The notes under the pieces were generated by a model. That model saw only the letters and a list, made by a program, of their open reading frames with translations, had not been told where the DNA came from and ran no database searches. 64,000 bases of DNA from Escherichia phage vB_EcoM_ECO78, in sequence record PP526941.1. One strand, 5' to 3'. The position numbers were made by a program, and so were the translations under genes. Below are positions 5,589 through 63,988 of this stretch, in pieces. The stretch's first letter is position 1; each line of letters starts with the position of its first letter.

Positions 5589-6104
5589 TTAAAGCAAATT
5601 AAACATTTTAACGGTCGGCAAAACAATTTCTTCTTCTATATAAGAGTATTTAACACTCTCAACTACACGCAAAAAATCATAATCATAATACTCAGAAGCA
5701 TTACCTAAAATATTAATAAGTCCTTCAAGCACTTTATTACCATTCGCAAAGAATAAGTCAAATACACGTTCTTCGTCTTCTTCGGATTTATTACCAAGGT
5801 CAACTTCTATATCAAATACCTTTTTAATGAATTCTGGATAAAGTTGTTCTGAGAACAGTCCTTCAACCAAGTATTCATAAATAAAAAGCGATTGCTCGCT
5901 GAACAAGCCATTACCACAATAGCGTTCAGCTTTAGTACTAGAATGTCTGCTTTTAAACTTCTTTAAAAGATATTGGAATTGTAAGATTTCATGCTCTTCT
6001 ACGCCAAACAATGTTTTGGTTTTATAGTTATCACCGTCATTTTCCCAGGTAGTGACATCAATTACGTAACCCTGCGGAATTGTAGTACCTAAACAAATAT
6101 TCAT
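5589..6104 (-). CDS. hypothetical early protein, 171 aa from the ATG
   Basis: Track start is GTG at 6113; ATG at 6102-6104 lies 2 nt after the stop of the upstream ORF (coupled). Confidence 0.5.
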   Translation of the reverse strand: MNICLGTTIPQGYVIDVTTWENDGDNYKTKTLFGVEEHEILQFQYLLKKFKSRHSSTKAERYCGNGLFSEQSLFIYEYLVEGLFSEQLYPEFIKKVFDIEVDLGNKSEEDEERVFDLFFANGNKVLEGLINILGNASEYYDYDFLRVVESVKYSYIEEEIVLPTVKMFNLL

Positions 6105-6106
6105 TT

Positions 6107-6397
6107 TCACCACGCTGCATTAATATAAGTATATTTAATACATTCAAGACCCAAAGGATTCTTGAAAATATCATATTCAAGAGGACCTTTTTCTGTTTCG
6201 ATAAAGAAATCAAAATTTACTGTATTAAATTTACGGTCTTCCTTCACTAATTTAACTTGAGAAGATGAACGGTCAATGTAAACCTTTTCAACTTCAAAAC
6301 ATGTTAAAATGCCATAATCATCAATCAAGGCTTTAGCCGCGTCTTGATCATATTTATATCCATTTTCAATGGACGATACTTTCGCATAAAGAATCAT
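6107..6397 (-). CDS. hypothetical early protein, 96 aa
   Basis: ATG adjacent to the stop of the upstream ORF (TAATAATG). Confidence 0.5.
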   Translation of the reverse strand: MILYAKVSSIENGYKYDQDAAKALIDDYGILTCFEVEKVYIDRSSSQVKLVKEDRKFNTVNFDFFIETEKGPLEYDIFKNPLGLECIKYTYINAAW

Positions 6398-6399
6398 TA

Positions 6400-6810
6400 T
6401 TAACCTTTATCAACAATAGTATGAGTATGGGCATTTACAATTTGCCACCAGTCGAAACTATCGCCAAATCGTTTTGATTTATTGTCTTCAATAATTTGGC
6501 GTAATTCATCTTCTGTTTCAGCATACGCAATCAAATCATCATATCCACCACAAGGATAGTAATTATCGCCTGCGAACAAAAGAAAATTTACTTTAGATGG
6601 GTCTACATAATAATGCTCTTTAGGATATTTAGTTCCTTTCCAATCAGTTACTTCAACATAACGGTAAGAAAATCCATTTTTACTTTCAACCCAACTCCAC
6701 GCTTCAAAAGGAGTATTAAAAACTTTATCAGGTATTAAATTACCTTCAAAATGAGAAGGATTTGCATAATCCCCAGCATAAACATAGTATTCGTTAATGT
6801 TAATACTCAT
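6400..6810 (-). CDS. hypothetical early protein, 136 aa
   Basis: ATG with AGGTGA RBS; aromatic-rich sequence. Confidence 0.55.
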   Translation of the reverse strand: MSININEYYVYAGDYANPSHFEGNLIPDKVFNTPFEAWSWVESKNGFSYRYVEVTDWKGTKYPKEHYYVDPSKVNFLLFAGDNYYPCGGYDDLIAYAETEDELRQIIEDNKSKRFGDSFDWWQIVNAHTHTIVDKG

Positions 6811-6996
6811 CTATTCACCTTTAGAAATTTTATCCATAACGATAGCAATTAAACCAATTAAAAATGCTACTACAAGTGAAAACACGTTTTCTGCTGTAGT
6901 CAATAATCCGCATATAAATCCAACAAACATTGAAAAACTAAAAGCAGAAGCAGAAATTGCAATAGCAACATTTCGAATTAATTCACAACGTTTCAT
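6811..6996 (-). CDS. small predicted membrane protein, 61 aa
   Basis: ATG with AGGAG RBS; two hydrophobic stretches (AIAISASAFSFSMFVGFICGLL and VFSLVVAFLIGLIAIV). Confidence 0.5.
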   Translation of the reverse strand: MKRCELIRNVAIAISASAFSFSMFVGFICGLLTTAENVFSLVVAFLIGLIAIVMDKISKGE

Positions 6997-7024
6997 TTTA
7001 TTCTCCTCGGTAGTTGATAGGGTA

Positions 7025-7053
7025 ATAGTATCACAACTAAAACCCTATGTAAA
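7025..7053 (-). promoter_or_regulatory. early promoter (-35 GTTTACA, 17 bp, -10 TACTAT)
   Basis: Minus strand atttcacaaagttGTTTACA-17nt-TACTAT, then AGGAG RBS and ATG at 6996. Confidence 0.55.
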
Positions 7054-7072
7054 CAACTTTGTGAAATATTTA

Positions 7073-7360
7073 TTACAAAAGATTTTTAGCAATAATCTTG
7101 AGATGTGCCGCAGAAATGTGTTTAGCTTTAAACAACGCAGTTTCTTCAGCAGGAGAGATAACGATTGTAGCACCATCCTTTTTAGCAGACCACCCATCAC
7201 CTAGGTAAACAGTACCTTTGATTTCTTCGCCATCAACCAAACTAATCATTGGTTTACCTTCTCGTCCTTTATTTGCTTTAATAACTTCAGAAGTAAGAGT
7301 AGCTTCAGTAATAGTAGAAACCGGGATAGTTGTAGAAGTAAATTCTTTGAAAGTTTTCAT
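7073..7360 (-). CDS. ipI: internal protein I (capsid-packaged, injected anti-restriction protein), 95 aa
   Basis: N-terminal CTS MKTFKEF...ITE; sequence and 95-aa length match T4 IPI as recalled; AGGAA RBS. Confidence 0.75.
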   Translation of the reverse strand: MKTFKEFTSTTIPVSTITEATLTSEVIKANKGREGKPMISLVDGEEIKGTVYLGDGWSAKKDGATIVISPAEETALFKAKHISAAHLKIIAKNLL

Positions 7361-7390
7361 TTTATTTTCCTAATTAATTTTGATGAGATA

Positions 7391-7419
7391 ATAGTATCAC
7401 TACCTCATCAGTATGTAAA
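7391..7419 (-). promoter_or_regulatory. early promoter (-35 GTTTACA, 17 bp, -10 TACTAT)
   Basis: Minus strand tttcacaaagttGTTTACA-17nt-TACTAT upstream of ipI; motif near-identical to 7025-7053. Confidence 0.55.
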
Positions 7420-7432
7420 CAACTTTGTGAAA

Positions 7433-8129
<697 letters not shown>

Positions 8130-55231: not shown

Positions 55232-55258
55232 GGGGACCTTTCGGTCCCCATATTTTTA
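55232..55258 (+). terminator. terminator after gene 54 (GGGGACC-TTTC-GGTCCCC plus U-run); also downstream of the convergent 96-aa gene
   Basis: Perfect 7-bp stem followed by ATATTTTTATTT. Confidence 0.6.
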
Positions 55259-55546
55259 TTTACGGAATGAAATGAAAGCAGCAACTGAAGCAACTAAACT
55301 GTCTTCAATATAAACTTCAATTTTTACCGGAGCTTCTGACTCAAATTTACCTGTTACTACACCCTGAAAAATACTTTCAGTCTGTTCTGGTTTTGAAAAA
55401 TTTTCAGAAGGAAAAATTCCGAACTTTTTATCTGTTCCAAAAATTTTGATAAATTCATCGTAAACTGCTTCATTAAAAGCATTATCAGCAGGAATAACGC
55501 CTTCAACTACAAGTTCTTGACCTAAAAAGCGTAAAGAAGATTTCAT
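55256..55546 (-). CDS. hypothetical protein, 96 aa (alt-downstream small gene)
   Basis: ATG with AGGAA RBS. Confidence 0.6.
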   Translation of the reverse strand: MKSSLRFLGQELVVEGVIPADNAFNEAVYDEFIKIFGTDKKFGIFPSENFSKPEQTESIFQGVVTGKFESEAPVKIEVYIEDSLVASVAAFISFRK

Positions 55547-55606: not shown

Positions 55607-57664
55607 CTACATTTTGAACTTTTTAGACATTCCGTTGATGTTAACCAAAGAAGCTAAGATTTGAGAAACTTCATTTTCCTCTTCTTTTGATTCTTCTACA
55701 AGGAATTGATTAAATCCAGCCATTGGACGAACTTCACCAGTTTCCATTAGATGGTCGCCATCATATACCGATTCCTCTAATTGTTCAGAAGGAGGAACGA
55801 TTGTACCTTCGATTAGATACTTGTTATAAGCAGTTTCTTTCATAAAGTACGTACTTACTTTATTAATCTTCAGTAAAATTCCACGTGGTAGAATAACTTC
55901 AGCTTCTGATGGAAATCCTGATAAATGACCTGGAACGATAACTTTGATTCGTTCAGCTCCTTTAATTACCATACCCACGCTAGTTTCAGCATCTTCATTA
56001 GCATATGTAGAATGACTACCCATATGCATCAAATCTTCTGCATCAACGGAACCTTCTCCTTCACCAGAAAATACTGCGCCGGAATCATCTAGAGCCATAT
56101 AGTTTTTACCATGCTCGCCGAAGATATTTGGTTTAAGTGATGTTGATACGAAGTTCTTGAAATAGAACATTTTATTTTCAATGTTATGACGCAAAGTTTT
56201 AAAGGTAACTTCTTGTCCGCGATAAAGCGTAGTTCCTGGAGGAAGAACTGATCCTTTGGCAAAGGCAGAATCAAGCGTCTCAATATGTTTAATAGCTCGT
56301 TCCATATATTCTTCACGGGTAGAATCTGGTTTACCCAAAAGGAACGAGTTCATTTCAACATATGAATCTGCACAATAATCTTCAATTACATCAGATTCAG
56401 CTTGAGTTAATCCTTTTGGAGTTACTTCAGTACTTGCATATTCATACGCCTGAGCGGCAGATTCATTAATCAATTTATAAATGCCATTCATTACAAATTG
56501 AATAATAGCTGTCTTTTCATCTGGCGTGGCTTTAGAACCTTTAACTAAATCATTAATAATTTTCTTAATAACATCAAAGCTATTAGAAATATTAATGTCA
56601 GCAAGATCGCTTAAAATTTTATCAGTTTTATAATCAAAGAATTCTTTATTCTTTAAATATTCTTGAGAACCTTGATATGTTATATCGCTCTGCAACTTGA
56701 TAGATGGATCACGTAAACGTGCATGGGCTAATGCAATATGATTTCGGAAGTTTTCTAGTTCATAATCGCTAGATTTAAAACGAGAAGCACTTCTCATACC
56801 ACCAATAGCTCCTTTGTTGAAGTTTGAACCAATCTGAATAACGCCAGAGTTCATCGGACCTTCTGCTTTATATACCGGAACCTTAGATTCAAACTCTTGA
56901 TATTTCTTAGCAGCGAAGCTATCACCCTGAAGTGAAGCATCAACAGTAGAATATTGAGCTTGTGCTGCTAATCGACGACTAATTTTAGTTTTCTGAATAA
57001 CAGCTTGATCAGTGCGCTTATCATTTTCTAAAGCAATAGAAGCAGCAACAGCGACAGCTTTAGGAACAGCATTACCTGTTTTAACGTCTACATAAACATC
57101 ACCAACCTTTGATTCAACTTTTGTGAATAACTCAGTTGAAATAGGAGGTACACCTGGAATGTCTTCTAAATTGGCATTTTTACGGTAAACCATAATATAT
57201 GCATACTTTTTATCATAGTCCCAGATTTCCTTTAAAAGAACATAACGACCTGCTCCTTTAGTACGTACTAAACGGTCAGCAATAACTTGCATTTGACGAG
57301 CTGCGCCATTTGTTTTACTTTTTAGTACGCGGAATAAGCATGCATCAATTTTATACTGTTTCATTGTTTGAAGAGCAGTATCAAAAACAGCATTAATGAC
57401 ACCAATTGGATTTCCACCCAAGTTTTTAAGCTTAACCAGCGATAGTTTCTCATTAACACCTATCATTACGATATGCATCATTTTATCGCCTGGCTTAACG
57501 TTTTTATTTGTATCACCGCCAGAGGTGTATGTACAAAATCTAAATCCAGGAAGCACGCTTTCTTCACCAGCTTGAATAGCAAAAATTTGAGGTATTTTAT
57601 GCTTAGGATTTAAGTTAACAACCGGCGCCGAAGCGCCGTCAAATAATTCTGTAATAAGTTCCAT
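55607..57664 (-). CDS. Alt-like ADP-ribosyltransferase paralog (arginine-specific ART motifs), 685 aa
   Basis: N-terminus MELITELFD... closely similar to the upstream Alt over about 240 aa; C-terminal half has YRGQ, FVSTSL and SEAEVILPRG (R-S-ExE) but is otherwise divergent; ATG 3 nt after the upstream stop. Confidence 0.8.
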   Translation of the reverse strand: MELITELFDGASAPVVNLNPKHKIPQIFAIQAGEESVLPGFRFCTYTSGGDTNKNVKPGDKMMHIVMIGVNEKLSLVKLKNLGGNPIGVINAVFDTALQTMKQYKIDACLFRVLKSKTNGAARQMQVIADRLVRTKGAGRYVLLKEIWDYDKKYAYIMVYRKNANLEDIPGVPPISTELFTKVESKVGDVYVDVKTGNAVPKAVAVAASIALENDKRTDQAVIQKTKISRRLAAQAQYSTVDASLQGDSFAAKKYQEFESKVPVYKAEGPMNSGVIQIGSNFNKGAIGGMRSASRFKSSDYELENFRNHIALAHARLRDPSIKLQSDITYQGSQEYLKNKEFFDYKTDKILSDLADINISNSFDVIKKIINDLVKGSKATPDEKTAIIQFVMNGIYKLINESAAQAYEYASTEVTPKGLTQAESDVIEDYCADSYVEMNSFLLGKPDSTREEYMERAIKHIETLDSAFAKGSVLPPGTTLYRGQEVTFKTLRHNIENKMFYFKNFVSTSLKPNIFGEHGKNYMALDDSGAVFSGEGEGSVDAEDLMHMGSHSTYANEDAETSVGMVIKGAERIKVIVPGHLSGFPSEAEVILPRGILLKINKVSTYFMKETAYNKYLIEGTIVPPSEQLEESVYDGDHLMETGEVRPMAGFNQFLVEESKEEENEVSQILASLVNINGMSKKFKM

Positions 57665-57667
57665 GAT

Positions 57668-59761
57668 TTATCCTTGAACGAACTTGTAAGGCATGTTTGT
57701 AATATCTATGCAAGACGCAATAATTCCAAGAGATGATTCTACTTTTTGTTTAACATTTGATGAAACAAACGATGCAAAGTCAACTCTGTCTTCTATTTCA
57801 ATATCACCTGTCATTGCAACTACTTCACCGGTTTCCATTAGACGGTCACCGTCATAAATTACTGATTCGGTGAGTTCTTCCGTAGTCATAACTTCAGCTT
57901 GAATGAGTTTTGTATTATTAGATGTTGTTCCGTCATTATTAGAAGCATCAGTTATTTTATTAACTTTGACCATCAATCCGCGTGGTAGAATAACTTCAGC
58001 TTCTGTTGCTATTCCGAGACTTCCTGGATATACAACATTAACTTTATGAGCTCCATCAATTGCCCATCCTATTTGAACTTTAACGTATTCAGGATTTTCT
58101 TTATACGCTCTTATTTCGTTTGGATTAATAGTTATTCCTTCTTCATTTTTATCAACTGTCAATTCATTACGAGCTTCTGGTTCTAAAAGACCAATACCAG
58201 CATGCGTAATTCCAAAACGTCCAAAAATGATAGGAGTTAAAGAAGTAGATACAAAATTTCTGAAATAAAACACTTTATTTTTAACTAGTGCTTCGTATAT
58301 AGGAGCAGTCATGCTTTGAGCACGATAAACTGTAATGCCTTCTGGTATACGGTCACCGTTTTCAAAAGCTGAATCTAAGTTATTTATAGCAGATTCAATT
58401 TCTTTTTCACTCATTACATCATATCGTTCTGGATTGTAGCGACCCAAAAGAAGATTATTGATGTCAGTATATCCTGAACCGCAATACTCTCTAATGCCGC
58501 GCTTTTGTGATGGAGTATATTTAGAACCATCACGGGCAATAGTAATATCAATCATTGGACCTGCACCAATTCCAGAAAAGCTATAAATCATTCGTTTGAG
58601 GAATTTAGTTTTTGCTGCGTTCCAGGAATTTTTAGTTATTTCTTCCCAGACTTCATCTGGCTGTCCTTTACGGGTTTTATTATGTTTATCAAGCCAATTA
58701 TCTTTATATTCTTCAAAGAATTTATTAACAGCTGCTGCGTATTTCTCTAAACATTTTATTGAAGTAGTTGGTTCATTTTTAATCGCATTAAGAATTACAT
58801 CTTTAATTTTTTCAGAAACTTCATCAACCTCACTTTTTGAAAAGAATTTATAGTCATAGTGAAGTTCATTTGCAGTTCCTTCAGCAATAATTTTTGCTGC
58901 CTTAGTTTTAGAAGCTAATGAATTAATTCCAAGCTTCATTTCTTCTGCTTCGGGAATTAAAGGAGCGGTAGCAGGTTTATTAAAATTAGCTGCGGTAGAT
59001 TCATACTTCTGGAATAATTCACTTTCAAATCTAGAAGATTCTAATGATTGACTTTGCGCAATTGCTCTACGGGAAATTTTAACTTTAACAATAACAGCTT
59101 GGTCAGAACGTTTATCATTTTCTTGTGCAATAGATGCTGCAATTGCCTCATTTTTAGTTACTTGAGCTCCAGTATCTTTATTGATATAAACATCACCGAC
59201 CTTCGATTCAACTTTAGTAAAGAGCTCGGTACTAATTTCCGGAACTCCTGGAATGTCTTCTAGTGATACATTTTTGCGATGTATAAGAATATATGCATAC
59301 TTTTTATCATAATCCCAGAGTTCCTTAAGAAGGACGTATCTGCCACCTGAACGACTACGGATGAGCCTATCAGCAATAACTTGAATTTGTCGAGCTTGGC
59401 CAGCAGTTTTAGACTTAAGAATACGAAGCATACAAGCATCAATTTTATACTGACGCATAGTTTGCATTGCAACAGTAAAAACTGAATTGATATAATTAAT
59501 TGGGCTTGGTCCAAGACCTTTTAATTTAGCAATTGAACCTTTAGCAGTTAATGTAAAAGGAACAATATGCATCATTTTATCGCCCATCTTTAAATCACGA
59601 TTAGTATCACCTCCAGATGTATAGGTACATAAACGAAAGCCTGGTTGTTCAATTGCATCATCAACATGAACTGAAAAAATTTGCGGTATTTTCTTCTTTG
59701 GATTTAAGTTTGTAATCGGAAGAGTAGTATCTTCGTCAAATAATTCTGTAATGAGTTCCAT
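57668..59761 (-). CDS. alt: Alt, capsid-packaged NAD:protein ADP-ribosyltransferase, 697 aa from the second ATG
   Basis: MELITELFDEDTTLPITNLNPKKK...; ART motifs YRAQ, FVSTSL, TEAEVILPRG; GAGAGGA RBS; late promoter upstream. Confidence 0.88.
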   Translation of the reverse strand: MELITELFDEDTTLPITNLNPKKKIPQIFSVHVDDAIEQPGFRLCTYTSGGDTNRDLKMGDKMMHIVPFTLTAKGSIAKLKGLGPSPINYINSVFTVAMQTMRQYKIDACMLRILKSKTAGQARQIQVIADRLIRSRSGGRYVLLKELWDYDKKYAYILIHRKNVSLEDIPGVPEISTELFTKVESKVGDVYINKDTGAQVTKNEAIAASIAQENDKRSDQAVIVKVKISRRAIAQSQSLESSRFESELFQKYESTAANFNKPATAPLIPEAEEMKLGINSLASKTKAAKIIAEGTANELHYDYKFFSKSEVDEVSEKIKDVILNAIKNEPTTSIKCLEKYAAAVNKFFEEYKDNWLDKHNKTRKGQPDEVWEEITKNSWNAAKTKFLKRMIYSFSGIGAGPMIDITIARDGSKYTPSQKRGIREYCGSGYTDINNLLLGRYNPERYDVMSEKEIESAINNLDSAFENGDRIPEGITVYRAQSMTAPIYEALVKNKVFYFRNFVSTSLTPIIFGRFGITHAGIGLLEPEARNELTVDKNEEGITINPNEIRAYKENPEYVKVQIGWAIDGAHKVNVVYPGSLGIATEAEVILPRGLMVKVNKITDASNNDGTTSNNTKLIQAEVMTTEELTESVIYDGDRLMETGEVVAMTGDIEIEDRVDFASFVSSNVKQKVESSLGIIASCIDITNMPYKFVQG

Positions 59762-59784
59762 CATATCCTCTCTAGTGTTTATTC

Positions 59785-59797: not shown

Positions 59798-59815
59798 AAA
59801 GGCCCGAAGGCCTTT
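59798..59815 (-). other. intercistronic UUCG-tetraloop hairpin (AAAGGCC-UUCG-GGCCUUU) upstream of alt
   Basis: Perfect 7-bp stem; lies between the 62-aa ORF stop and the alt late promoter. Confidence 0.45.
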
Positions 59816-60002
59816 AATAATCTATTGGTAAGAGAGTACGATATATTTCAAACTTTGGACCTTTTTCATAGGCATCAAATGTTTCTGTGAATTTATTATA
59901 AGCATATGCATCTATAAATTCAATCATGATTTGTGATACAGAAGTAGAAACATCTCCACCTTCTTTTTGAGCCACGACAATTGTTTCTAAGTAAGCTTTC
60001 AT
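59814..60002 (-). CDS. hypothetical small protein, 62 aa
   Basis: ATG overlapping the ligase stop (ATGA). Confidence 0.5.
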   Translation of the reverse strand: MKAYLETIVVAQKEGGDVSTSVSQIMIEFIDAYAYNKFTETFDAYEKGPKFEIYRTLLPIDY

Positions 60003-61462
60003 AAACCAGTTACCTCATGAAAATCACCAAATACATCTTCGAATGTATTAGCTTTAGTTTTATCTTCACGCAAACGAATCGCAATTGGAAGAAATAATTT
60101 AACGTAATCGGTGCGGCCATCAGATTTTAACCAACCGTTGCATTCGCACTCTAGAATTTTTCCAATATAATAATTTTGGTTTTCCATAATGCGAGTACGG
60201 TCAAGTTCATGCGATTTTACACCGGCTTTATCTTTTAAGCCTGAACCAGCATTTACTTTAATTTTTCCACACTCTGACTCAAGAATAAATCCACCCGCTT
60301 TAGTAGGGTCTTTACGGTGAGGATAAATTCCTACAATTTTTAAATCAACATCAATTACTTCTTTAAATTTATAGAGATTTTTTGAACGAGCATTTTCCCA
60401 TAATCCATCGATATTTTTGAGAATAATACCTTCAAGACCTTGGTCAATATACTTTTTATAAATTACCTTAGCTTCATCCAGGTTATTTACTACTTGGTTT
60501 TCAATTAAAATTACTTTATCATAGCCTGATGTCATTTGTTCTAGTTTAGAAAAACGTACATCATATTTCAAACGAAATGCTGGAAGACCGTATATTTCTA
60601 CCAACGGTACATAATCCCAGACCTGAAACTTCATGCATTGTGCTTCTTTTTCTGAAATAGTTCCCTTTAAAGATTTATTGGCGATGCCATTAGATGCAGT
60701 ACGTGATTCAGCTACTTCTGTGAAGTCTTTAGCTTTACTGTTTTCAGGGTGAGCATCAAAAAGAAAATCTAGGCCTTCTGGTTCCTTTTCAACTTGCTCA
60801 TGGTATACCAATTCGCCATCAATTAACACACCTTCTGGATGAATCTGGCGGGCTTCAGCAGTCATTTTGATTAATTCTTCCTTAAGAAGATCTAATCCTA
60901 GATATTCATTACCAGCTCGTGATAAAAGACGAACATCATCTAATTCATCGCCTCGGACTTCAGCAAAACACCGAGCTCCATCAGCTTTTAACTGGGCAAA
61001 GGCTGGAAATTTGATATTCTTATTAATGCCTTTTTCATCATAAGAACTTGCTAGCATTTGAGGTTGTTCAGGAATTAAACCTGGCCAAACTTTGTTTGCA
61101 ATAGATACTGAAGCACCACATTCAAGGTCTCGCATCATCACTCGACGCAAAACTTCAACATCATCTTTTTTACCGTCAGTAATATAACCTACTAATTCCT
61201 CAATTGCCGCATTTCCAGTCAATTTCCGAGTAGCTAACGTGAATTCAATGAAGTCAAGCATATCGGTAAGAGTCAACATTCCAAAACTCTGGGTAGCAAT
61301 ACCAGGTTTAGGCCATTTCTTGATATAATATTGTAACCCACGAGAATAAGTCAGACGATATACTCGTTTAAGCAATTCATTATCTTTATTCTTTTCAAGA
61401 ATTGCTTGCTTCTGCTTAGTTGAACCAATAGATGCTATTTCGTTCAGAATTTTAAGAATCAT
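59999..61462 (-). CDS. 30: ATP-dependent DNA ligase (gp30), 487 aa
   Basis: MILKILNEIASIGSTKQKQAILEKNKDNELLKRVY...; adenylation motif KADGARC. Confidence 0.95.
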   Translation of the reverse strand: MILKILNEIASIGSTKQKQAILEKNKDNELLKRVYRLTYSRGLQYYIKKWPKPGIATQSFGMLTLTDMLDFIEFTLATRKLTGNAAIEELVGYITDGKKDDVEVLRRVMMRDLECGASVSIANKVWPGLIPEQPQMLASSYDEKGINKNIKFPAFAQLKADGARCFAEVRGDELDDVRLLSRAGNEYLGLDLLKEELIKMTAEARQIHPEGVLIDGELVYHEQVEKEPEGLDFLFDAHPENSKAKDFTEVAESRTASNGIANKSLKGTISEKEAQCMKFQVWDYVPLVEIYGLPAFRLKYDVRFSKLEQMTSGYDKVILIENQVVNNLDEAKVIYKKYIDQGLEGIILKNIDGLWENARSKNLYKFKEVIDVDLKIVGIYPHRKDPTKAGGFILESECGKIKVNAGSGLKDKAGVKSHELDRTRIMENQNYYIGKILECECNGWLKSDGRTDYVKLFLPIAIRLREDKTKANTFEDVFGDFHEVTGL

Positions 61463-61728
61463 TGCTCATCCTTTAGAGTTTGGTTTACAGCTCTATTATA
61501 AATCAATTCATCATTAAGCTCAGTCAAAGACCTATGATATGTAGTTCTAACTTTATTTCCTTGCATCCAATGCTTGACGTAAATGAAACCTTGCTCTACA
61601 CATTTTTTAAAAATTCGTTCGTCTTTTTGAGCTCGGAATTCTGGATTGCATCTAAAAAATTGATTTACGTGACCATAATCACGTGTAGTATTACCTTCAT
61701 TTTCATAAATAGTGTGAACAACAAACAT
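61459..61728 (-). CDS. hypothetical protein, 89 aa (30.1-like position)
   Basis: ATG overlapping the upstream stop; coupled gene series. Confidence 0.6.
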   Translation of the reverse strand: MFVVHTIYENEGNTTRDYGHVNQFFRCNPEFRAQKDERIFKKCVEQGFIYVKHWMQGNKVRTTYHRSLTELNDELIYNRAVNQTLKDEQ

Positions 61729-62582
61729 TAGAATGCTCCTTGGAAAATATTATCACCACTACCACTAGTAAGTCTATTAAAATACCCTGCATCGCCGGGC
61801 TTAATATAACTCCACGTATGGAATGGATGCATCTGGTGTGAGTGCGTATAATATGGATGATATGGATTATAAGGATTAAATCCAGGAGTTCTCCAGGTAG
61901 TGTTCCAGCGAAAAGAATCGTTTTTAATCATCTTCTCAATTACATCTTTTATAGCTTTTTCACTATCAAAATTTTCTTTATTTTCCTTCAATGGAAAAAG
62001 CTTATTCTCTACATCATTCCATGTATAAACTCGCTGTGCAGTTTTTGGAATATTGTCACGCTCTCCTCGAGCCATCCAATACACAGGAACACGTAATATT
62101 TCACTCGCATGATCGCAGTGGTGAGCGAGATCGTCAATATAACAAATTACGTTATATTTCTCTTTTGCCTTTTTGAACAACTCTTCTTTTGAAGAATCAT
62201 GACCACACATCATTACTTCCGAGAAGGCACCAGGAAAAAGAGCATTCAAATTAAATTGACGATTCAACAAAGCGTCAATAGAATCACCCAATGCTGTAAC
62301 AGCTACAAAATTATAATCTTCTTTTAATTTGTTAATTACACACAGGGCATCTTTATATGGAGACAAATAACGAATAAAATCTGATCGATTGTATTTTTCA
62401 ATTAGCTTAACGCCAAGTTCTTCATCACAATTAAAGAGTTTACCTGGAGAAATAAATTTCTCATCCTGGATCATTTTTAAAATATGTTCCAACGGAAGAT
62501 TATATTTCTGAGCAAAATAAGGAAGGCCTGATTGCCAGCTTAAACATACTCCATCAATATCAGTTAAAATAGTAGGCTTCAT
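61728..62582 (-). CDS. HAD-superfamily hydrolase-like protein (possible nucleotidase/phosphatase), 284 aa
   Basis: N-terminal motif ILTDIDGV (DxDG HAD motif I); C-terminal low-complexity Pro/Tyr/His-rich tail. Confidence 0.6.
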   Translation of the reverse strand: MKPTILTDIDGVCLSWQSGLPYFAQKYNLPLEHILKMIQDEKFISPGKLFNCDEELGVKLIEKYNRSDFIRYLSPYKDALCVINKLKEDYNFVAVTALGDSIDALLNRQFNLNALFPGAFSEVMMCGHDSSKEELFKKAKEKYNVICYIDDLAHHCDHASEILRVPVYWMARGERDNIPKTAQRVYTWNDVENKLFPLKENKENFDSEKAIKDVIEKMIKNDSFRWNTTWRTPGFNPYNPYHPYYTHSHQMHPFHTWSYIKPGDAGYFNRLTSGSGDNIFQGAF

Positions 62583-63043
62583 AGAGAGTCTCTTAATAGG
62601 TTTAACACATCAATAAATTCAGCTTCGGTTAGTATTGTATCATCTTTTGTTAGACCACTAGCCATGCTGTGCTTCAAAACTTTTCCTTTCGAGGCTTGTA
62701 ATGCATCACGAAAGCCCTTGTTTTGGATCGCTGCTTCAAAATATGCATTTGTGTATAATTCTTTCCACGCCGGGGAGTATCTTGAAAATGGAACTCCAAG
62801 CCAGAAGAGGGTCCCACGGTCCTGAGCTCTAGCATAAGCTCGTCCAGCTTGTTGGGCGGCAAGCCCGGATAACCCAAATATACGTCTTTGCTGTTCAACA
62901 TTTTTCACTTTACATCCTTGAAGGAATCCTTCGAGACCTCCAAATTGAATGCCATCCATAACGAAAGGCCATTGGGCGAAATTACTTAATGCACATGATG
63001 GCCATCTAAAATTACTTCTAATCTCTAACTCAGACATTTTCAA
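62579..63043 (-). CDS. NADAR (YbiA/DUF1768)-like protein, possible ADP-ribose-processing enzyme, 154 aa
   Basis: Motif LSNFAQWPFVMDGIQF...EGFLQGCKV resembles the NADAR N-terminal core (SNF..WP...DG....E.F.Q.K). Confidence 0.5.
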   Translation of the reverse strand: MKMSELEIRSNFRWPSCALSNFAQWPFVMDGIQFGGLEGFLQGCKVKNVEQQRRIFGLSGLAAQQAGRAYARAQDRGTLFWLGVPFSRYSPAWKELYTNAYFEAAIQNKGFRDALQASKGKVLKHSMASGLTKDDTILTEAEFIDVLNLLRDSL

Positions 63044-63236
63044 TGCTTATAATTTCAACATCAGCCCAATGACCATAGCAAGGAAGACGAAATTCAACTG
63101 GCCAGTTAGGGTCCTTTTCTAATATAATAGACTCAACTTGTGGTTCTTCGTGTTCATCAGTATACGGATTTTTATCTGTTACTTTATATGTGACCTTAAT
63201 GTACTGAATTCCAAAAATCTTATTAATTATATTCAT
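63030..63236 (-). CDS. hypothetical protein, 68 aa
   Basis: ORF overlapping its neighbours in a coupled minus-strand series. Confidence 0.5.
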   Translation of the reverse strand: MNIINKIFGIQYIKVTYKVTDKNPYTDEHEEPQVESIILEKDPNWPVEFRLPCYGHWADVEIISIENV

Positions 63237-63430
63237 ACTAATTCCTTTAATCCGTAAATAGGAGATAATTCATCACCCATACGAAGGTCTTCATTTCCAT
63301 CTACCCAGGAAACAATATAAGCCTCTTTTATTTGAATACCACTCCATTTAAATGGAGATAGAACCTTAGAAATTAATCCAGGTATACCAACTCCCTTTAA
63401 TTCAACAGTTTGACCTAAAAAGAATTTCAT
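63233..63430 (-). CDS. hypothetical protein, 65 aa
   Basis: ORF in the coupled series; start overlaps the upstream stop. Confidence 0.5.
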   Translation of the reverse strand: MKFFLGQTVELKGVGIPGLISKVLSPFKWSGIQIKEAYIVSWVDGNEDLRMGDELSPIYGLKELV

Positions 63431-63717: not shown

Positions 63718-63757
63718 AACATTTTCCTCAATAGGGGCCGAAGCCCCTCATTTATTT

Positions 63758-63988
63758 TTAAATATCAAATTCGTTAAGAACTACATCAAAGACTGCTTCC
63801 AAGTGCTCAGGTTTAGCTTTGTTACTCAGAATATGACGAATCCAAGTTTTAACTAAGAGTTTACGATTAACACCATTCCAGCAAGGATGAGTCCCTAAAT
63901 CGCGTTGACGAAAATCATCATCCAAAGCGATTTTGAAGTTGGAACCTTCCATTGTGATTGAAACCGTGATGCCATTTTCAAATCGCAT
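63758..63988 (-). CDS. hypothetical protein, 76 aa or longer (start may lie beyond the window end)
   Basis: ATG at 63986-63988 without an obvious RBS; the frame stays open to position 64000. Confidence 0.4.
   Translation of the reverse strand: MRFENGITVSITMEGSNFKIALDDDFRQRDLGTHPCWNGVNRKLLVKTWIRHILSNKAKPEHLEAVFDVVLNEFDI

Follow-up and report, generated by a model that had tools for sequence, protein, structure and literature searches.

Genes 30.3 (adfN) and 30.2 of Escherichia phage vB_EcoM_ECO78: a known anti-DarT1 gene and a putative phosphatase gene that probably form an ordinary gene pair of a T4-like phage

When a phage gene for a NADAR-like protein lies close to genes for ADP-ribosyltransferases (ARTs), does its product reverse the modifications made by these ARTs, or does it protect the phage from an ADP-ribosylating system of its host? 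This question is raised by a 64,000-nucleotide (nt) stretch of the sequence record of Escherichia phage vB_EcoM_ECO78 (PP526941.1; hereafter, the window), on the minus strand of which two overlapping open reading frames (ORFs) of 154 and 284 codons are found near the genes for a DNA ligase and two Alt-type ARTs. An initial annotation, made from the sequence alone, had compared the shorter product with NADAR/YbiA proteins and the longer one with HAD hydrolases, and had proposed either an ADP-ribosylation writer/eraser kit shared with Alt or a counter-defence against host enzymes. Both ORFs were recovered on that strand at the positions given there, together with the strings on which the comparison was based (LSNFAQWPFVMDGIQF at residues 17-32 and EGFLQGCKV at residues 36-44 of the shorter product, DIDGV at residues 8-12 of the longer one). 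We find that these ORFs correspond to genes 30.3 and 30.2 of T4-like phages (Tequatrovirus), and that they are very probably an ordinary gene pair of such a phage, with no ADP-ribosylation unit evidenced between them and Alt. The NADAR gene of the window is already published and has been characterised in T4, where it was renamed adfN.

The shorter ORF (62579..63043, minus strand) encodes 154 amino acids (aa) only if translation starts at a TTG. The mechanical ORF call thereby includes two extra codons (TTG AAA, 63038..63043) that lie 5' of an ATG at position 63037, from which the product has 152 aa (62579..63037). We accepted this ATG as the real start, because the 459-nt length of T4 gene 30.3 and the published numbering of residues E36 and K43 fit only with it. 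From there on, the protein is identical to T4 gp30.3 at 150 of 152 positions (99%), with A67 for S and M125 for I as the only differences, and it matches PF08010 (Bacteriophage protein GP30.3) over profile positions 1-138 of 138 with an E-value of 4.6e-70, as well as phrog_652 with an E-value of 2.1e-51.

The link between gp30.3 and NADAR proteins is thin at the sequence level and clear at the structure level. A direct Pfam scan of gp30.3 gave no match to PF08719 (NADAR) at E ≤ 10, while three out of ten relatives matched this family weakly (best E 0.0031). Searching the PDB with the profile of the gp30.3 family brought up YbiA at an E-value of 0.056, and searching it with gp30.3 or gp30.2 as single sequences gave nothing meaningful. 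Aligning the family profile with E. coli YbiA using hhalign gave a probability of 85% (E 6.3e-6) over residues 16-125, with LEGFLQGCK placed opposite SEHYFQAQK. An AlphaFold2 model of gp30.3 (predicted local distance difference test score, pLDDT, of 85.8) was then compared with the PDB using Foldseek: the only confident matches were E. coli YbiA (2b3w), the DarT1-associated NADAR of Geobacter lovleyi (8bat) and a Phytophthora (P. nicotianae) NADAR with ADP-ribose (8bau), with probabilities of 0.99-1.00 and template-modelling (TM) scores of 0.57-0.67, all other matches having a probability of 0.07 at most. The NADAR-like character proposed for the shorter ORF is therefore supported by its PF08010 match, by structural matches to NADAR proteins only and by the YbiA profile alignment, and gene 30.3 of the window encodes a NADAR-superfamily protein of the phage (gp30.3) branch.

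What such a protein does has been described for T4. Johannesman et al. (2025) mapped the resistance of T-even phages against DarTG1 to gene 30.3, and showed that T4 adfN is sufficient against DarTG1 and gives RB69 its growth back on DarTG1 hosts, that AdfN is weakened by the E36A or K43A substitution or by the loss of its C-terminal helix, that purified AdfN strips ADP-ribose from DarT1-modified DNA in vitro and that no interaction between AdfN and DarT1 is seen in a two-hybrid assay (PMC11825919). Independent work also showed that the T4 NADAR performs guanine-specific de-ADP-ribosylation in vitro (PMC11125620, PMC12945103), with a His residue where other NADAR families carry a Glu or an Asp (PMC11125620, PMC12945103, PMC11543638).

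The window allele shares with T4 AdfN (PMC11825919) its gene, its position, its length and residues E36, K43 and H123, the two substitutions that separate them being conservative. The three residues are invariant across the family alignment, with H123 located in the last strand; the protein is full length, with no frameshift, and its C-terminal helix (residues 138-151) is present in the model, as it is in T4 AdfN and unlike in the inactive allele of RB69, which has lost it. With all three residues and the terminal helix in place, the window adfN should be functional, and its 99% identity over the full length suggests that its activity should be like that of T4 AdfN. Its product would be a minimal stand-alone NADAR-fold ADP-ribosylglycohydrolase which, in hosts carrying DarTG1, would cleave the N-glycosidic bond by which DarT1 attaches ADP-ribose to guanine in phage DNA. 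Such a cleavage would give normal guanine back and make replication possible, through an enzymatic reaction and without binding of the toxin. For the second proposal of the initial annotation, a counter-defence against host ADP-ribosylation, there is experimental proof in the T4 protein, 99% identical to that of the window (PMC11825919).

Another close parallel is found among the DarG1 antitoxins (G. lovleyi 8bat, E. coli C7), which have in common with the phage NADAR the fold, the hydrolysis of guanine-N2-ADP-ribose on DNA and the catalytic Glu and Lys residues. Unlike these antitoxins, the phage protein is an orphan that lacks a DarT partner, is limited to the core domain, with no N-terminal extension, carries its His where DarG1 has an Asp and leaves uninfected E. 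coli unprotected from DarT1. Looking for a DarTG1-type pairing in the window, we found no DarT1 gene: the neighbours of the NADAR gene are 30.4 and 30.2, the nearby ARTs are of the Alt type (PF03496) only and no PADLOC match was obtained. The window NADAR is thus an orphan, as published. As for E. coli YbiA (2b3w), it is the best structural match of gp30.3 (Foldseek E 5e-5, TM 0.67), yet the two proteins are only 18% identical, the last strand of YbiA has a Glu and other roles have been proposed for YbiA.

Could AdfN nevertheless act on the products of the phage's own ARTs? The initial annotation was correct on the neighbours: the ligase is encoded by gene 30 (59999..61462, minus strand; PF01068, E 5.3e-33), and the two ARTs are Alt itself, a 698-aa protein encoded at the position of T4 alt (57668..59764, minus strand; PF03496, E 1.8e-37), and an intact 685-aa paralogue (55607..57664, minus strand; PF03496, E 5.8e-20). 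AdfN, possibly with gp30.2, might then reverse or tune ADP-ribosylation by these Alt enzymes, encoded 3-7 kb away, and the presence of two intact Alt-type ARTs in the same strand block speaks for this. So does chemistry, considering that Arg-ADP-ribose and N2-guanine-ADP-ribose are both N-glycosidic linkages on a guanidine-like nitrogen and that guanine-specific pierisin-type ARTs are related to Arg-specific R-S-E ARTs. A 2022 paper had also pointed out that the NADARs of T4-like phages belong to the early genes and that ARTs are encoded near them (PMC9503650). We found no literature report, including in PMC11543638, in which the T4 NADAR was tried on protein Arg-ADP-ribose. However, every substrate demonstrated for the T4 NADAR is ADP-ribosyl-guanine in nucleic acid, the published substrates of AdfN being such guanines in DNA and RNA and not protein, and the reported effect of deleting adfN is sensitivity to DarTG1. 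Proximity to alt, moreover, is inherited T4 synteny: it is broken in Enterobacter phage CIP9, where the NADAR gene lies near gene 1 and ipI and far from alt, and Slopekvirus-like loci show the order NADAR-30.2-ligase with no alt within 5 kb. Because the known substrates of AdfN are guanines in nucleic acids and not the protein targets of Alt, and with the adjacency of NADAR, HAD and Alt genes not being conserved outside close T4 relatives, a writer/eraser kit that would include the HAD protein is unsupported, and we regard AdfN as most improbable as an eraser of Alt modifications. Protection of phage DNA from DarT1 is the function that we retain for AdfN.

The second gene of the pair, 30.2 (61728..62582, minus strand), encodes a 284-aa protein belonging to phrog_420 (E 4.1e-91), a family with no annotated function there, and it gave no match in Pfam (E ≤ 1) or NCBIfam. 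An alignment of 35-37 homologues, with identities down to 36%, nonetheless showed the four HAD motifs: motif I is D8-I-D10-G-V, motif II T96, motif III K132 and motif IV D150-D151. No substitution was seen at D8, D10, K132, D150 or D151, and at least 90% of 35 diverse homologues have T96. The structure model is confident for residues 1-196 (61995..62582), which form a Rossmann-like core interrupted after motif I by five helices that correspond to a C1 cap (about residues 13-75). The top profile match in the PDB was the deoxyribonucleotidase 2jao (E 0.028), over an alignment that includes the cap. Relatives of gp30.2 matched PF00702 (9/35), PF06941 (5/35) and PF13419 (5/35) weakly, with best E-values of 1.2e-4 to 7.6e-3; in further relatives, the Pfam scores that we saw were under the gathering cut-off, bar one PF13419 match. 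These motifs and this fold show that gp30.2 is a HAD-superfamily enzyme, as the initial annotation had anticipated from DIDGV.

For both proteins, assigning the fold took profiles, structure models and literature, because the direct Pfam scan was silent: compared directly with Pfam, NCBIfam and PADLOC, the two proteins gave PF08010 only and no NADAR, HAD or defence-family match. The initial annotation had named profile searches and structure prediction as ways to check its claims. The second of these bore it out, as the gp30.3 model matched NADAR structures and the gp30.2 model showed a HAD core with a cap. The first had a mixed outcome: neither PF08719 nor a HAD family appeared at E ≤ 1 in the direct scan, and the folds were reached through profiles, models and literature. 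Taken literally, the proposal that profile searches without a NADAR or HAD hit would refute the assignments would misfire here, because the direct Pfam scan shows neither.

What gp30.2 acts on can be approached from its neighbours in sequence and structure space. The protein is nearest to the 5'(3')-deoxyribonucleotidase (NT5C-like) branch, and its structural neighbours among viral proteins (BFVD) are phage proteins labelled as 5' nucleotidases. Most likely, gp30.2 is a Mg-dependent small-molecule phosphatase, with a nucleotide as the likeliest substrate; it would dephosphorylate a nucleotide-type metabolite via an aspartyl-phosphate on D8. Still, it is 14-21% identical to the NT5C enzymes themselves (human cdN 6g2n, 2jao and 3bwv from Staphylococcus epidermidis), and the window protein does not match the NT5C family PF06941, which a few relatives match weakly, as said above. 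Unlike NT5C proteins, gp30.2 has its own set of invariant residues in cap and core (W16, S18, Y64, S67, R108, N111 and R172, specific to its family) and an 88-residue tail. The T5 deoxynucleoside-5'-monophosphatase Dmp resembles gp30.2 in being phage-encoded and in having a DxDGT motif I; as a relative it was rejected, since only motif I aligns and the hhalign probability is 1.8%. Dmp itself has no Pfam match. Our literature search found no functional or biochemical work on gp30.2.

Since gene 30.2 lies close to the ligase gene, its product might also be a 3'-phosphatase that readies nicks for the adjacent DNA ligase. The five-helix C1 cap above the active site of the model argues against this. 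Such a cap is typical of small-molecule HAD phosphatases, whereas the Pnkp-type DNA phosphatase is capless. The nearest matches of gp30.2 are nucleotidase-like and T4 already encodes Pnkp. Besides, outside T4-like phages the gp30.2 family adjoins UvsY, RecA or PhoH and not a ligase. A role at DNA ends is thus quite improbable, and a nucleotide-type metabolite stays our preferred substrate.

Behind its HAD core, gp30.2 continues with residues 197-284 (61731..61994, minus strand): a long helix (residues 197-221) leads into a disordered tail that abounds in Pro, Tyr, His and Trp, with a pLDDT below 50 at residues 242-284. This tail is hypervariable among homologues, where it comprises 0 to 187 residues, and most family members have ~200 aa and consist of the core alone. 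A motif like GIGTGIEYLxxQPT is present in 21 long-tailed homologues, and the C terminus of a separate group resembles L[RK]A[YF]Y. In the window, the tail DAGYFNRLTSGSGD is a diverged version of T4 GIEYLYNRPTCGD, from which it differs by in-frame indels of +15, -3 and +6 nt, ruling out that it originated from a frameshift. It is probably a docking element. Long relatives were also considered for clues to function that might come from fusion partners, without success: outside their HAD part, no Pfam domain was found in P0125, P0162, P0170 and P0237. Two of them, P0170 (591 aa, encoded at 6001-7776 of locus L109) and P0237 (660 aa), have N-terminal extensions of ~390 and ~500 residues, respectively, with no Pfam match. 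In addition, the metagenomic protein P0035 (302 aa) carries the gp30.1 domain PF11243 after its HAD core, which may be a real fusion or an artefact of assembly or frameshift.

Are 30.3 and 30.2 then a unit of their own? Their translational coupling, proposed by the initial annotation, stands as far as the sequence of the junction goes: the stop codon of 30.3 and the start codon of 30.2 share an ATGA (62579..62582, minus strand; tcat on the plus strand). This arrangement is not specific to the pair, because overlaps run along the whole eight-gene string from 30.6 to alt.1, the junctions 30.6/30.5, 30.5/30.4, 30.4/30.3, 30.3/30.2, 30.2/30.1, 30.1/30 and 30/alt.1 all being overlaps of 1, 4 or 8 nt. 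When 78 gp30.2 loci on viral contigs were compared, a ligase gene was found within 5 kb in 73 of them and a NADAR gene within 5 kb in 37, making the gene 30 ligase the most consistent partner of 30.2 in T4-like phages. Inherited synteny within a neighbourhood of DNA-metabolism genes is the best reading even of this linkage, because more distant relatives adjoin other genes: beyond T4-like phages, the neighbours of gp30.2 relatives are varied (UvsY, RecA/UDG, Pol I, PhoH), with no ligase or NADAR link in the neighbourhoods of these distant relatives. Starting from the NADAR side, 26 loci showed 30.2 next door in close T4 relatives; the distant loci L018-L026 had no gp30.2 nearby, except for a weak HAD match ~0.8 kb upstream in L021. 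In CIP9 (NC_048849, Kanagawavirus; our locus L108), 30.2, 30.1, ligase and alt are together while the NADAR gene (139041-139505) is ~119 kb off, in a plastic region with small hypothetical genes near gene 1, the deoxynucleoside monophosphate (dNMP) kinase gene, a small ORF annotated as 'RNA ligase' and ipI. The NADAR gene has moved between plastic regions, and its loose linkage with 30.2 together with the CIP9 case shows it to behave like an accessory gene that is mobile, as would be expected of an anti-defence factor. Altogether, 30.3 and 30.2 are members of a single dense string of early genes, with no evidence of a joint unit, with or without Alt.

Several observations weigh against this conclusion or against the assignments beneath it. 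Neither protein of the window reaches a Pfam NADAR or HAD model, and the NT5C and PF08719 families are matched weakly, by some relatives only. The spread of the two genes over phage genera is nearly equal in GenBank phages, with gp30.2 in 1444 records and gp30.3 in 1510, and with counts for gp30.2 and gp30.3 of 77 and 77 in Aeromonas, 69 and 69 in Acinetobacter and 33 and 33 in Yersinia phages. AdfN(T4) reaches full activity in T-even infections only, rescues T5 and Bas25 poorly and fails as an antitoxin for uninfected E. coli facing DarT1 (PMC11825919); these limits imply that a phage partner is missing, gp30.2 being a candidate.

Indeed, the authors of that study suggested that an extra T-even protein is needed by AdfN(T4) in vivo (PMC11825919), and gp30.2 could be this helper, either through its tail, which would dock AdfN at replicating phage DNA or at the replication machinery, or as a phosphatase clearing a phosphorylated by-product. 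Its gene is on the same message as adfN, joined to it by the ATGA overlap, and a NADAR gene lies immediately upstream of 30.2, or within ~1.5 kb upstream, in 37 of the 78 loci, some of them in distant Acinetobacter, Aeromonas and Slopekvirus-type phages. The near-identical genus distributions of the two families point in the same direction, as does the first 60 kb of T5 (about half of its genome), where we found no gp30.2 family member (best E 0.28), T5 being one of the phages that AdfN(T4) rescues poorly. Against a helper stands the fact that AdfN alone strips ADP-ribose from DNA in vitro, in a reaction that needs no phosphate chemistry. Moreover, 41 of the 78 gp30.2 loci have no nearby NADAR gene, the two genes are ~119 kb apart in CIP9, and the co-distribution may only reflect that both genes are common in Straboviridae. 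We thus consider it unlikely that gp30.2 assists AdfN. If it did, the NADAR and HAD proteins would be the two components of one anti-DarT module and not the products of two unrelated genes. We retain the view of two genes of one early string.

Judged from its sequence, the window is that of a Tequatrovirus with T4 gene order. The DNA at 61400-63300 has matches in 669 phage records, the top ones being Tequatrovirus isolates with a best identity of 97.4%, and a comparison of the ORF listing with the annotated T4 genome (AF158101) showed that the gene block lies entirely on the minus strand in the same order, with genes 30.4, 30.5 and 30.6 after 30.3 by synteny with T4. Between 30.2 and the ligase gene lies gene 30.1 (61459..61728; 89 aa, DUF3045, PF11243, E 2.9e-64), which overlaps the stop codon of 30.2 by 1 nt. 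Beyond the ligase gene, alt.1 (59814-60002) encodes 62 aa that match PF24647 ('Phage blade protein'), a recent addition to Pfam, with an E-value of 7.5e-29, and alt.-3 (55256-55546; DUF5498) lies beyond the two Alt genes. The products of alt.1, 30.1 and alt.-3 bear family labels with no assigned function. The second Alt paralogue is apparently intact where T4 carries only the decayed fragments alt.-1 and alt.-2, and both tandem Alt proteins retain the YR.Q, STS and EAEVILPRG motifs in addition to their PF03496 match.

Inside adfN, an ORF of 75 aa in the +1 frame (62674-62901, minus strand) corresponds to gene 30.3' as annotated in T4. It was rejected as a conserved gene on two grounds: in 8 of 12 related loci an ACG, ATT or ATC stands in place of its ATG, and an equally long open +1 frame arose in 23% of synonymous resamplings. 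From this comparison, 30.3' is probably not a conserved gene. A scan for promoters and terminators gave site numbers no different from those of shuffled sequence. A perfect G+C-rich palindrome, AGGGGCCGAAGCCCCT, is present at 63733-63748 and is followed by a T-run on the plus strand; it lies within the 40 nt that separate the ORF at 63758-63988 from gene 30.6, and it is the sole strong hairpin of the 59.7-64 kb region, where the count of such sites is the same as in shuffled sequence.

A reader of the bare sequence thus independently rediscovered a published counter-defence gene, which makes the result useful for annotation and for host-range prediction and not a discovery: the phage of PP526941.1 is predicted to be resistant to DarTG1. 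As for gp30.2, its family counts 1459 clusters at 50% identity at E ≤ 1e-3 and 683 at E ≤ 1e-10, and a few of its GenBank members are annotated as HAD-like hydrolase or putative phosphatase. With at least 683 such clusters at the stricter threshold, this phage HAD family is very large; it has no Pfam model, and in many of the T4-like loci examined its gene sits between those of an anti-DarT enzyme and a DNA ligase.

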